Positions 13,790-18,298 of a DNA stretch of 20,525 nt are shown one piece after another. The stretch is from a virus. The notes below the pieces were generated by a model. The model ran no database searches. It was not told where the DNA came from and saw only the letters and a list, made by a program, of their open reading frames with translations. Position 1 is the first letter of the stretch. Every line of letters begins with the position of its first letter. The position numbers and the translations under genes are program-made. The stretch lies in UHGV virus genome UHGV-2123520; one strand, written 5' to 3'.

Positions 13790-14842
13790 ATGAAAAATAC
13801 TGTAAAAATAAACAGTGTTGAGTTAATCAACGCTGATAGCCTGCATTACGTCGCCACCCTCCCGGATAACTCTATTGATCTGATTGTTACGGATCCTCCG
13901 TACTTCAAAGTGAAGCCTAACGGCTGGGACAACCAATGGAAGGGGGACGAGGACTACTTACGCTGGCTTGATAGCTGCCTGGCTGAGTATGCTCGCGTAC
14001 TTAAACCTGCTGGCAGCATTTACCTGTTTTGCGGTCACCGACTGGCCTCAGACATAGAGATTATGATGCGTGCCCGGTTCAACGTTTTGAATCACATAAT
14101 TTGGGCAAAACCATCGGGCCGCTGGAATGGTTGTAACAAAGAAAGCCTGCGTGCGTACTTTCCATCTACGGAACGGATTTTGTTTGCTGAGCACTATCTT
14201 GGGCCGTACACAGGTAAAGAGGATGTTTACGAAAGGAAAAGCACAGAGCTAAAGCAGCACATTATGACGCCACTGATTGACTACTTCCGTAATGCCCGTG
14301 AATCGCTGGGTGTCAGCTCGAAAGAAATAGCTGAGGCAACCGGAAAGAAAAACATGGCGTCACACTGGTTTGGTGCAAGCCAATGGCAACTACCGAATGA
14401 AGTGGACTATCGAAAATTGCAGGAACTGTTCACGCGGATCGCCATCGATAAACATATTCAGCAAAAGCTTGAACATCCTCACCACCAGCTGGTGGCTACC
14501 TACCAGTCATTAAACCGCAAGTATTCAGAATTGCTGGAGGAATACAAAATCCTTCGGCGCTGCTTCTCTGTTTCCGCTCTTGTTCCGTATACCGACGTAT
14601 GGACGCATAAGCCTGTTCAGTTTTATCCAGGCAAACATCCATGTGAAAAACCCGCCGACATGCTGAAGCAGATCATTAGCGCCAGCAGCAGGCCGGGGGA
14701 TATCGTTGCCGATTTCTTTATGGGCTCTGGTTCAACTGTGAAAGCTGCAATAGAACTTGGCCGTCGGGCGATCGGAGTAGAACTGGAAGCTGACAGATTT
14801 ATTCAGACCACCGAAGAGGTGGAAAAACTGAGCAAAACATAA
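13790..14842 (+). CDS. DNA methyltransferase, beta-class N6-adenine/N4-cytosine (DPPY before FxGxG)
   Basis: IDLIVTDPPYF (motif IV) near N-terminus and DFFMGSGST (motif I) near C-terminus, the circularly permuted order of beta-class amino-MTases. Confidence 0.75.
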   Translation: MKNTVKINSVELINADSLHYVATLPDNSIDLIVTDPPYFKVKPNGWDNQWKGDEDYLRWLDSCLAEYARVLKPAGSIYLFCGHRLASDIEIMMRARFNVLNHIIWAKPSGRWNGCNKESLRAYFPSTERILFAEHYLGPYTGKEDVYERKSTELKQHIMTPLIDYFRNARESLGVSSKEIAEATGKKNMASHWFGASQWQLPNEVDYRKLQELFTRIAIDKHIQQKLEHPHHQLVATYQSLNRKYSELLEEYKILRRCFSVSALVPYTDVWTHKPVQFYPGKHPCEKPADMLKQIISASSRPGDIVADFFMGSGSTVKAAIELGRRAIGVELEADRFIQTTEEVEKLSKT

Positions 14843-16275: not shown

Positions 16276-16545
16276 ATGGGACTTGAAATGATTATCGGCC
16301 TGATTGTTGCTGCGCTGGCAGCAATTGCCGGTGCTTTTGGTCTGGGCAAATCACGTGGTGCCAGTATTGCTGAAACAAAAGCGGACCAGCAACGAACTGA
16401 AGAACGTGCAACTGCTACTGAAGCTGTTGCAGAACGCCGGGTAGAAACAACAAAAGGAGCCAGGGATGTACAACAGACTGTTAATCATCTTCCTGATGAC
16501 GATGTTGACCGTGAGTTGCGCGAAAAGTTTACCCGCAAAACCTGA
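16276..16545 (+). CDS. Rz-like inner-membrane spanin (i-spanin)
   Basis: N-terminal transmembrane segment MIIGLIVAALAAIAGAFGLG followed by a charged helical region; GAGG RBS; embedded overlapping lipoprotein ORF downstream. Confidence 0.55.
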   Translation: MGLEMIIGLIVAALAAIAGAFGLGKSRGASIAETKADQQRTEERATATEAVAERRVETTKGARDVQQTVNHLPDDDVDRELREKFTRKT

Positions 16546-16699
16546 AGTAACGGACACGGCCTGTGACTGGGTAAGCATAATCTACCTCACTGAGCACGAC
16601 ATTGAGGTTATGGACCGCCAGACTAAGAAAGATGTGTTGACTCATAACAGGTCCGTTCAGCGTAACTGTCCCAATAAAATCACCATGGCCTCGCAATAG
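16466..16699 (+). CDS. Rz1-like outer-membrane lipoprotein spanin (o-spanin), overlapping the i-spanin in another frame
   Basis: Signal peptide MYNRLLIIFLMTMLTVSC with lipobox-like TVSC; starts inside the Rz-like gene and extends past it. Confidence 0.5.
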   Translation: MYNRLLIIFLMTMLTVSCAKSLPAKPEVTDTACDWVSIIYLTEHDIEVMDRQTKKDVLTHNRSVQRNCPNKITMASQ

Positions 16700-16710
16700 C
16701 GGGGCTTTTT
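16688..16710 (+). terminator. Putative terminator after lysis cassette
   Basis: gcctcgc aata gcggggc (one G-U pair) followed by ttttt. Confidence 0.4.
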
Positions 16711-16823
16711 AATGCGCATCGCACGCGCACATCAAAGAAAGTCTTTCAGTTGTGAGCCTGGGCAAACCGTTAACTTTCGGCGGCTTTGCCGTGCGACAGG
16801 CTCACGTCTAAAAGGGTATAGCT

Positions 16824-16997
16824 ATGCAATTCGGCAAAAAATCAAAGTCAGGATTGAGGATGTTTATTCGTAATGACGGGATGATCATCAGCGATAAAAA
16901 GGGACGAACGCGCATTGTTATCGGTGTGCTCGGTGATGATAAACATGTCTTACGCACTGGTCGTCCTTCTACCTTCAAACAGTTAGGCCGCGCTTAA
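16824..16997 (+). CDS. Small basic hypothetical ORF (57 aa), below ORF-track threshold
   Basis: ATG 16824 with AAGGG 8 nt upstream; translation MQFGKKSKSGLRMFIRNDGMIISDKKGRTRIVIGVLGDDKHVLRTGRPSTFKQLGRA; ends 14 nt before the next gene. Confidence 0.3.
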   Translation: MQFGKKSKSGLRMFIRNDGMIISDKKGRTRIVIGVLGDDKHVLRTGRPSTFKQLGRA

Positions 16998-17011
16998 AAA
17001 AGGATCGAATA

Positions 17012-17626
17012 ATGGCTGAGAAAATTATTACGCTATCTGGCGCTGCTACTGACGTGCTGTATGCGCTCTTTTTCCGTGGCGCGTTGCTGTCAGGTGACCT
17101 GCCGTCTAAATCTGGTGCCGCTGAATTACGCGAGCTGGGTTTTGCTGAAACCAGACATACAGCAACTGAATACCAGAAAGAAAATCACTTTACCTTTCTG
17201 ACATCAGAAGGGCAGAAATTTGCCGTTGAACACCTGGTCAATTCCTTCGAACTTATTCGCAATGGAGTGTCATTCATCAAGGACGCCGCTATCGCAAATG
17301 GTGCTATCCACGCAGCGGCAATCGATACACCTCAGCCGGTGACCAATATCTACAACATCAGCTTTGGTGTTCGCAGTGATGAACCGGTGCAGAACAAGGT
17401 AACCACCAGCGCCGACAAATTTGAAGTTAATTCTGGTGTCGATACCAATCTCGAAGCGTTAATCGAAAATGTGCTGAAAAACGCTGCTGAATGTGCGGCG
17501 CTGGATGTCGCAAAGCAAGTGGCAGCAGACAAGAAAGCGATGGATGAACTGGCTTCCTATGTCCGCACGGCCATCATGATGGAATGTTTCCCCGGTGGTG
17601 TTATCTGGCAGCAGTGCCGTCGATAG
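17012..17626 (+). CDS. Hypothetical protein in moron position between lysis genes and cos
   Basis: 204-aa ORF with AAGGA RBS; no motif I can assign. Confidence 0.5.
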   Translation: MAEKIITLSGAATDVLYALFFRGALLSGDLPSKSGAAELRELGFAETRHTATEYQKENHFTFLTSEGQKFAVEHLVNSFELIRNGVSFIKDAAIANGAIHAAAIDTPQPVTNIYNISFGVRSDEPVQNKVTTSADKFEVNSGVDTNLEALIENVLKNAAECAALDVAKQVAADKKAMDELASYVRTAIMMECFPGGVIWQQCRR

Positions 17627-17680
17627 TGTGCAATTGATAATTATTATCAAAAGGTACTCCCGGAGGGGGACCCTGCCACG

Positions 17681-17692
17681 GGGCGGCGCGCT
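17681..17692. other. cosN-like cohesive-end site
   Basis: cacg GGGCGGCGCGCT cgcgg matches the lambda cos junction tacg GGGCGGCGACCT cgcgg at 10 of 12 cohesive-end positions and in both flanks; lies about 105 bp upstream of the small terminase gene. Confidence 0.5.
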
Positions 17693-17797: not shown

Positions 17798-18298
17798 GTG
17801 TTCACCATCATGGACCAGGAAATTGCCACTTTAAAACTGAATATCAACCAGTTGGCGGGGATCACTGGCGTACACCGTCAGACGGTCGCCGCCAGGCTGA
17901 AAAATATTGAACCGGCACCAGGTAGCAACAGCAAATTAAAGCTTTACCTGATCACCGACATTCTGACCGAACTGATGATCCCCACTGTGTCAGCCAATAT
18001 CGATGACATGCTGCCATCGGACAGGCTTTCCCACTGGAAAGCGGAGAATGAGCGACTCAAGTTTGAGCAGGATACGGGGCAGCTCATTCCCGCTGATGAA
18101 GTGGCGCGCGAATTCTCATTGATGGCGAAAGCCGTCGTCATGGTACTTGAAACCCTCCCTGATGTACTTGAGCGTGACTGTGCATTAACGCCTGTTGCGG
18201 TTTCTCGCGTGCAGAGCGTTATTGATGACCTGCGCGATCAGATGGCGGAGAGGGTGCAGGACGCTGAAGCAGAGGAGGAAGAGCCAGAGGAGGACTGA
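17798..18298 (+). CDS. Terminase small subunit (Nu1-like)
   Basis: N-terminal HTH LNINQLAGITGVHRQTVAARLKN parallels lambda Nu1 KKQLADIFGASIRTIQNW; acidic C-terminus; stop overlaps large-subunit start. Start uncertain (GTG 17798 or ATG 17810, neither with a clear RBS). Confidence 0.65.
   Translation: MFTIMDQEIATLKLNINQLAGITGVHRQTVAARLKNIEPAPGSNSKLKLYLITDILTELMIPTVSANIDDMLPSDRLSHWKAENERLKFEQDTGQLIPADEVAREFSLMAKAVVMVLETLPDVLERDCALTPVAVSRVQSVIDDLRDQMAERVQDAEAEEEEPEED

Follow-up and report, generated by a model that had tools for sequence, protein, structure and literature searches.

In lambdoid phages, morons (a concept of Hendrix and Juhala, with lambda bor and HK97 gene 15 as examples) are in their classical form equipped with their own promoter and terminator and are expressed from the prophage. 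Processing by RNase III is known for the leader of lambda N, and T7 has intergenic RNase III sites. The interval between the lysis genes and cos is a textbook slot for accessory cargo, and the phi80 gp66/N15 gp59 proteins are already known by sequence as an uncharacterised family. Here we describe this interval in the virus genome UHGV-2123520, a stretch of 20,525 nucleotides (nt), called the window below, which represents the late region of a lambdoid phage or prophage. In the window, a terminator is followed by a structured leader of ~120 nt, a gene for a 57-amino-acid (aa) protein, a gene for a 204-aa protein, a cos-proximal palindrome and cos. A preliminary description of this DNA had read the stretch from the lysis genes to cos as a slot for accessory cargo, and this cargo is indeed variable, as related phages carry other genes there. 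The leader is a conserved, covarying plus-strand RNA structure and thus qualifies as a generic cis-regulatory structured RNA. We propose from the sequence comparisons that the interval may be a recombination-portable late-operon cargo cassette, translationally gated by its leader and encoding accessory proteins, a reading in which our confidence and our doubt are about equal.

The complete leader RNA spans positions 16708-16829 on the plus strand, from the T run of the upstream terminator to the first cargo codons, and the plus-strand RNA has a predicted minimum free energy (MFE) of -40.9 kcal/mol (z = -2.4). It starts with helix P1 (UGCGC-N7-GCGCA, 16713-16729), which is followed by helix P2 (16751-16806), a long irregular hairpin of 10 + 6 + 5 bp. 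P2 is the nested inverted repeat of the preliminary description and is present as given there, with GTGAGCCTG (16752-16760) paired with CAGGCTCAC (16797-16805) and GGCAAA/TTTGCC inside; it is conserved and covaries in more than 100 independent copies. The Shine-Dalgarno sequence of the first cargo gene, AAAGG (16811-16815), lies 8 nt 5' of the ATG, and this position is kept in all copies. In the MFE structure, an anti-Shine-Dalgarno strand, UCUUUCAG (16742-16749), pairs with CUAAAAGG (16808-16815). This basal helix is predicted to pair an invariant UCUUU/CCUUU 5' of P2 with the Shine-Dalgarno AAAGG 3' of P2, and the motif CUUUCAG is invariant in 67/67 leader variants. The predicted pairing probability of the Shine-Dalgarno bases is 0.8-0.97 in the window and exceeds 0.7 in 96% of the 67 variants, nearly all of it with the anti-Shine-Dalgarno strand.

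The pairing is kept while the bases change. On the 67 sequences, 94.9% of the cells are paired, compared with 33-49% when the partners are slid, and double-sided changes occur in seven pairs and 50 cells; P1 has 93.7% of its cells paired and two pairs changing on both sides. The inner stem of P2, GGCAAA/UUUGCC, is replaced in variants by AGAAA/UUUCU, AGGAAC/GUUCCU, GGGAA/UUCCC or GGUGAU/AUUGCC, the last of which retains G.U pairs that are valid on the plus-strand RNA only. The covariation score of the 67 sequences is 0.118 versus 0.074 in shuffles and is reached by 0/500 shuffles, a control that overstates the significance because the leader copies are related and have spread by recombination. 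An independent set from species-representative genomes, the alignment of which was fitted to the covariance model, shows 92.1% paired cells and 10 pairs changing on both sides. The covariance model (R1) finds a single copy in the window, with 137.9 bits on the plus strand versus 24 bits on the minus strand. The preliminary description is therefore borne out in placing a structured leader ahead of the gene pair, and this leader is a conserved, covarying RNA. In Rfam 15, the window has no family at the gathering thresholds, and no family overlaps the leader core at E <= 10. A leader peptide starting from an ATG at 16712 was also considered and rejected, since this ATG is not conserved among leader copies.

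The same leader stands in front of many other genes. Positions 16700-16822 are 92-98% identical to unannotated intergenic DNA of many lambdoid phages in which the flanking genes are unrelated, and E. coli prophages carry diverged copies at 73-90% identity. In each case the leader ends about 10 nt 5' of a start codon, and the gene behind it differs: phi80 gp66, phi80 rha, HK639_13 (between tail genes), the gene of a 297-aa AsXd-1 protein and genes of Rha-family regulators. Further cargo includes a small open reading frame (ORF) with an HNH nuclease gene, a GT2 glycosyltransferase operon and genes of KilA-N-like proteins. In total, at least 145-148 leader instances were gathered (at least 120 stretches from a pattern scan of viral contigs, plus other loci), 96 of which are unique, and the 125 cargo proteins behind them fall into at least 19 unrelated clusters. 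Among species-representative genomes, 35 copies are confirmed by the covariance model, in genera that include Citrobacter, Enterobacter, Kluyvera, Buttiauxella, Atlantibacter, Pantoea, Erwinia, Serratia, Kosakonia and Symbiopectobacterium; overall, the hosts cover about a dozen genera of Enterobacterales. Every leader position found is inside a late operon, following the lysis genes or the major tail gene, and an intrinsic terminator (hairpin plus T run) directly adjoins 73/129 unique leader copies. So far as the libraries searched show, a conserved leader with predicted Shine-Dalgarno sequestration before many cargo families is new. The same applies to the division of the cargo into a small and a large gene and to the association with cos of the Fur-like palindrome described below. 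We found no description of the leader or the proteins in the literature on N15 gp59, phi80 Fur-regulated ORFs and rha/IHF, a search that covered sources outside the subscription literature.

Several side observations concern the leader copies and their cargo. Some phages carry two leader copies before two different cargo genes. In phi80 these precede rha and gp66 (locus L001, 1392-1540 and 2995-3116) and are ~69% identical with the same helices; Pantoea (L148, 3513-3650 and 4840-4976) and Buttiauxella (L155) provide further cases. Pattern hits in Actinomyces, Nocardia and other non-Enterobacterales are chance matches that the covariance model does not confirm. Copies in a Collinsella metagenome-assembled genome (L173) and a Cellvibrionaceae metagenome-assembled genome (L153) score 100.2 and 100.6 bits, compared with 100.6 bits for an E. 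coli copy, and most likely come from mis-binned enterobacterial phage contigs. The cargo proteins are built from shuffled modules, among them a "DDG" beta module, a winged helix, a helical DELD segment and a J-like segment. Otherwise different cargo proteins share a C-terminal tail, ...PGG(V/I/L/T)(I/L)W... (DGGLWKY in one of them), with examples at L006 2627-3307, L008 2614-3507, L007 2638-3105 and L015 2125-2460, and this shared motif suggests a common interaction partner. The right end of lambda shows no DNA homologue of the leader or of either cargo gene of the window and has the palindrome alone in common.

The second cargo gene of the window (17012-17626, plus strand) encodes the 204-aa protein. 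The preliminary description rightly reported this ORF, which is conserved in other genomes, but its statement that the protein has no recognisable domain does not hold, because relatives (phrog_17079) and an N-terminal winged-helix fold can be recognised. The match to phrog_17079 has an expect value (E) of 2.1e-124, and the NCBI family is named "Fur-regulated protein". The protein aligns end to end with phi80 gp66 (ORF x171.28, "similar to N15 gp59"), which has 242 aa and whose gene lies directly 5' of cos, with 77% identity over the full length, gap excepted. DNA alignment to phi80 shows that the window gene is a variant of the phi80 gp66/N15 gp59 family with an in-frame deletion of 114 nt (38 codons), the junction of which lies at 17242/17243, after codon 77. 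All 28 other aligned family members have the segment that is lost here (TRFGKQQYC...DQRIRDTV). It represents the second module (TRFG...DELD...IR) of the complete set, placed between the winged helix and the J-like segment with the C-terminal helix behind it, and the exact 204-aa variant without it is recorded on 4 contigs only. The family comprises 684 clusters in a large protein database, mostly of 242 aa and some of 224 or 238 aa. An exhaustive profile search of 1.84 billion representatives returned 130 clusters in which three or four modules are freely shuffled: the N-terminal ~80 residues, a helical "VEIDTSxAQKxIDELD" segment, a segment related to the terminal part of J-type tail fibres, and a long helix at the C-terminus that closes with PGGxIW.

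We modelled the N-terminal domain (aa 1-80, 17012-17251) with AlphaFold2 and a diverse alignment, which gave a predicted local distance difference test score (pLDDT) of 86.4 and a predicted template modelling score (pTM) of 0.72. The top Foldseek matches of this model in the PDB are all MarR/PadR winged helices, with query TM-scores up to 0.75, and MarR TM0710 ranks first in a search of the PDB with the sequence profile, although weakly (E = 0.034). The N-terminal 80 residues are thus predicted with confidence to fold as a MarR-like winged helix. The 204-aa protein has no Pfam helix-turn-helix or MarR match, and the closest homologues of its N-domain are uncharacterised phage proteins of 75-106 aa, such as PhiPA3 gp276 and those of RisingSun and Noxifer; homologues of this kind occur in many phages, jumbo phages among them. 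The long C-terminal helix (aa 145-192, 17444-17587), followed by the conserved tail ...PGGVIW..., is the sole confident part of the full-length model. Taken together, the protein combines a winged-helix domain and a long helix with what is left of a segment resembling the J tail fibre, and lacks the 38-aa module.

This composition also allows a reading in which the protein is a virion-associated or receptor-related accessory, with the J-like segment and the long helix forming a trimeric fibre and the N-domain serving as its anchor. Such a role would fit the late position and the mosaicism of the gene. The relatives phi80 gp66, HK639_13 and AsXd-1 pass the PF09327 (Phage_Tail_Tip) threshold with 23.4, 37.7 and 29.5 bits, and a sequence search of the PDB weakly matches the C-terminal end of an F2-pyocin tail fibre (E = 0.13). 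HK639_13 and one Citrobacter koseri copy lie among tail genes, the family is extremely modular, and a poor monomer model is what an obligate oligomer would be expected to give. However, the window copy itself stays below the PF09327 gathering threshold (18.1 versus 22 bits), its N-domain has a fold of the DNA-binding type, and clearly non-structural cargo uses the same leader. We found no virion proteomics and no published functional test of any gp66 family member. We consider a fibre-like role unlikely.

The strong identity of the leader copies raises a different alternative, in which the leader is not a functional RNA but a DNA recombination joint at a module boundary, or a protein-binding DNA site, conserved for cargo exchange. 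Recent recombination at a common joint would leave just such an identity of 95-98% over ~110 nt between unrelated flanks, and both P1 and GAAAGTCTTTC are DNA palindromes; RNA and DNA roles could also coexist. A joint of this kind does not account for the copies at 73-80% identity, which keep their helices by compensatory changes and by G.U changes valid on the plus strand only, nor for a covariance model score that is 114 bits higher on the plus strand. The fixed position of the leader relative to the Shine-Dalgarno sequence and the ATG, and the conserved predicted pairing of the former, also argue against it. A role as DNA in place of RNA thus seems improbable to us.

The first cargo gene (16824-16997, plus strand), with an ATG at 16824 and a stop codon ending at 16997, encodes a strongly basic 57-aa protein with 14 lysine and arginine residues and 4 aspartates. 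The preliminary description had pointed out this lysine/arginine-rich frame, which was missing from the ORF list, and we find it conserved in other genomes. It lies in an insertion of ~187 nt (16823-17009) that phi80 and E. coli prophages lack and that separates the leader from the start of the gp66-like gene. DNA searches of 5426 complete E. coli genomes and of the phage collection found no match to this insertion. Homologues in Citrobacter and Salmonella form 24 clusters with 77-96% identity, and one cluster is present on 274 contigs. In every context read (contexts were taken from exact-protein look-ups), a gp66-family gene, usually of 229-242 aa, follows the small gene after 12-14 nt. The surroundings of the pair vary, with different holin/endolysin sets and Nu1/GpA or HNH/Terminase_4 packaging modules, and one copy of the pair lies after the major tail gene in a Citrobacter koseri prophage. 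The ratio of non-synonymous to synonymous substitution rates (dN/dS) is 0.2-0.54 across four lineages, the variable sites are distributed 11/6/18 over the three codon positions, and a 3-nt indel is in frame. Because of these three patterns and the constant gp66-family neighbour, we count the 57-aa ORF as a real gene that is coupled to the larger one; the sequence evidence indicates that it is lineage-restricted and under purifying selection. Its start is taken as the ATG at 16824 rather than that of the 45-aa form given by some gene callers, because the first twelve codons carry synonymous changes and Met13 is often V, A or S. A small-protein alignment scan of genome contigs gave 135 pattern hits, 0 of which were confirmed.

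In a Citrobacter koseri prophage (L027, 2692-3375) the small ORF is intact, and the gp66-like gene is split into ORFs of 173 aa and 51 aa in different frames; the latter gene is probably a pseudogene beside a retained small gene. An 18-residue match of the small protein to the regulatory domain of a DAHP synthase in the PDB was judged to be due to chance. Compared with phi80 gp64 and the N-termini of HK639_13 and AsXd-1, the 57-aa protein gives hhalign probabilities of 2-20%. The best of these weak resemblances (hhalign probability 20%, P = 0.001) is to the N-terminal module of other cargo proteins, and in one such protein this module is fused upstream of the same winged helix. We treat this possible kinship as a lead and not as a result.

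The pair of a small and a larger gene behind a regulatory leader had been read in the preliminary description as a layout of toxin-antitoxin, abortive-infection or anti-defence systems. The pair itself is confirmed as a conserved adjacent unit in Citrobacter and Salmonella prophages of several backbones, but the functional reading of it is not. An obligate system of this type would agree with the distance of 14 nt between the genes, with their being kept together on different phage backbones in the two genera, with a small basic protein under purifying selection and with the classic accessory slot. However, the larger gene is found on its own in phi80, Nissle 1917 and about 200 E. coli genomes, and no DNA match to the small ORF exists in the 5426 E. 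coli genomes, which argues against an obligate two-component system. Neither window protein matches toxin, antitoxin or defence models in Pfam, NCBIfam or PADLOC, and in PADLOC-DB 2.0 no family is found at E <= 1 for the two proteins and three relatives. In addition, the leader also precedes unrelated cargo, and neither the sizes (57 + 242 aa) nor the winged helix of the larger partner would be typical of type II systems. We regard this explanation as very unlikely, and the tempting toxin-antitoxin or defence label is removed from these proteins as unsupported.

Downstream of the 204-aa gene, the cohesive end of cosN, GGGCGGCGCGCT (17681-17692, plus strand), begins 54 nt past the stop codon (the preliminary description had counted 55 nt), and its 12 nt agree exactly with the cohesive end in the annotation of phage LLS. 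Between gene and cos, 8 nt downstream of the gene, lies a perfect 7-1-7 Fur-box-like palindrome, TGATAATtATTATCA (17635-17649). It matches the Fur box core TGATAATnATTATCA perfectly and is the sole such site in the 20.5 kb, where 0.04 would be expected per window. This palindrome is found at the same place, to the left of cosQ/cosN, in lambda (L010, 3053-3067), phi80 (L001, 3849-3863) and mEp043 (L009, 3145-3159). It is present in 10/10 cases with cos and in 0/7 cases where the gene is not followed by cos. By this sequence comparison it belongs to the cos-proximal region and not to the gene cassette, and it may be a part of cos or a real Fur site. The linkage probably explains the database name "Fur-regulated protein", which is likely to be a misnomer.

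The name and the perfect palindrome 8 nt past the gene would otherwise speak for a Fur-regulated lysogenic-conversion gene that is expressed from the prophage under iron limitation. Against this reading, the palindrome tracks the lambda-type cos, and lambda has the palindrome without the gene. Moreover, it is downstream of the gene, not upstream, and overlaps a promoter-like site directed away from the gene, and the leader has no Fur-like site. A 2026 study reported that phi80 production is independent of iron availability (PMC13449921), which also counts against iron control, although it concerns induction and not the gp66-like gene. Iron-controlled conversion is highly improbable in our assessment. 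The promoter-like site is a sigma-70-like sequence, TCGATA-16-TATTAT, at 17620-17647 (in phi80, L001 3834-3861), with its -10 element within the palindrome; it reads rightwards through cos to the terminase genes, is kept in phi80 and has a comparable arrangement in lambda. If real, it would be an iron-repressible promoter into the packaging genes.

The segment between the palindrome and cosN (17650-17680, AAAGGTACTCCCGGAGGGGGACCCTGCCACG) is unlike the cosQ region of lambda and phi80 (GGGTCCTTTCCGG...) and is 82% identical to mEp043. The 7-bp cosQ has been described as invariant among lambda-like phages (PMC4669245). Because AAAGGTACTCCCGGAGGGGGACCCTGCCACG differs from this published invariant, we suspect that the cos of the window may be of a type with a variant cosQ. 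The weakest explanation, that a winged-helix protein binds near cos and assists terminase as a packaging accessory, draws on the gene adjoining cos in phi80, N15-type phages, Nissle and the window and on the winged helices that small terminase subunits also use, but we give it hardly any credence, as the gene also occurs away from cos (before HNH/Terminase_4 modules or glycosyltransferase operons, or in the tail region), lambda packages without it, and relatives without the winged helix fill the same slots.

Our preferred explanation, a leader-gated late cassette, would work as follows. The cassette would have no promoter of its own, and late in infection Q-modified RNA polymerase would read through the Rz1 terminator into it. 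A terminator-resistant polymerase of this kind is the simplest source of the mRNA, because the leader sites are all in late units, the unit starts with a terminator, and a promoter is undetected. With the leader folded, the first cargo gene would stay untranslated until the long hairpin opens or is cleaved, and the trigger would most likely be, by analogy, RNase III cleavage of the ~28-bp irregular helix. The near-invariant leader sequence may double as a recombination patch that moves cargo. The proteins would be accessory and non-essential. The larger one would most likely bind nucleic acids as an oligomeric regulator, in the manner of the Rha and KilA-N cargo behind the same leader, with the small basic protein as its lineage-specific partner.

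Several points weigh against this explanation. A consensus scan found no sigma-70-like site from the terminator to the ATG, be it in the window or in the two phi80 copies, but a weak or factor-dependent promoter may escape such a scan. The geometry of the leader, with its ~28-bp irregular helix, is compatible with RNase III by analogy only, and the relatedness of the leader copies inflates the shuffle control given above. Some of the cargo, such as the O-antigen-type GT2 genes, is of a kind usually expressed in lysogens. A winged helix can serve protein contacts instead of nucleic-acid binding, the full-length AlphaFold2 model of the 204-aa protein (pLDDT 42.8) is unusable for a fold search, and the window copy may be impaired by the deletion of a nearly invariant module.

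More tentatively, and with rather less than even confidence, we extend the leader-gated cassette to a general proposal. The leader could be a hitherto undescribed, portable riboregulator, a "cargo socket" of Enterobacterales lambdoid phages, that silences translation of any gene behind it until a late-infection cue (RNase III, or a phage or host factor) frees the Shine-Dalgarno sequence, and that also offers a homology patch for cargo swaps. The 57-aa and winged-helix proteins would then be the separated counterparts of fused "module X + winged helix" proteins known from elsewhere and act as one complex. Should the leader act in this way, lambdoid phages would follow a simple rule in taking up and controlling accessory genes, among them potentially harmful ones such as those for Rha, KilA-N-like proteins, glycosyltransferases and HNH nucleases. 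One RNA module would combine tight translational control with a recombination handle, and an unannotated RNA family would be added that is found in many clinical Enterobacterales prophages. The timing of the cargo, late-lytic or lysogenic, would then be directly testable in phi80, which has two leader copies.

The neighbouring genes place the cassette in its genome. Upstream of the interval, a DNA methylase gene (13790-14842) is followed by two holin-family genes and a GH19 endolysin gene, and then by the Rz/Rz1 spanin genes (16276-16699), which are of the overlapped and not the embedded type. The Rz-like ORF ends at 16545, and the Rz1-like lipoprotein ORF (16466-16699, lipobox LTVSC) begins within it and runs 154 nt past it. 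The intrinsic terminator (16687-16710, plus strand) consists of an 8-bp GC-rich stem with a 4-nt loop (16687-16706) and the T run TTTTTAAT, in agreement with the terminator that the preliminary description had put at 16688-16710; its stem starts ahead of the Rz1 stop codon. Downstream of cosN lie the genes for a DUF1441-type small terminase (17798-18298) and then a GpA-type large terminase. Three metagenome contigs match the window at 100% identity and its nearest relatives are Citrobacter prophages; the carrier of the cassette would be a Citrobacter-type lambdoid phage.

Compared with known systems, the window protein resembles the J-type central tail fibres (PF09327) in the motif NG.xFIKDAxIxxGAI and neighbouring residues, and differs from them in that a fragment of ~30-60 residues only is shared and the gene lies outside the tail module. 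With MarR/PadR domains, the predicted N-domain shares the order helix-helix-helix-beta-hairpin-helix, with query TM-scores of 0.6-0.75 to MarR, ZitR, MexR and BpsR. It differs from these domains in that it resembles them marginally in sequence (E = 0.034), lacks the MarR dimerisation helices, and continues after ~80 residues into unrelated modules. The cargo is like morons in its presence/absence insertion between conserved late genes (the Rz-to-cos and post-tail-tube slots) and in its high mobility. The term moron, used for it in the preliminary description, is justified insofar as the cargo is inserted and polymorphic between conserved neighbours. It fails in the strict sense, as the sigma-70 consensus scan shows no promoter-like site in the leader, and no terminator-like site is found between the end of the 204-aa gene at 17626 and cos; the unit instead begins with a terminator and a leader predicted to sequester the Shine-Dalgarno sequence. 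With the phi80 gp66/N15 gp59 family the window has in common the place immediately before cos and the leader upstream, and it differs in the loss of 38 conserved residues and in the extra 57-aa gene, which phi80 and the E. coli prophages do not have. Finally, like the lambda N leader and the T7 RNase III sites, the leader of the window is a long irregular hairpin directly 5' of a ribosome-binding site in a polycistronic phage transcript, but it has no sequence relationship to them and is portable, standing before at least 19 cargo families.

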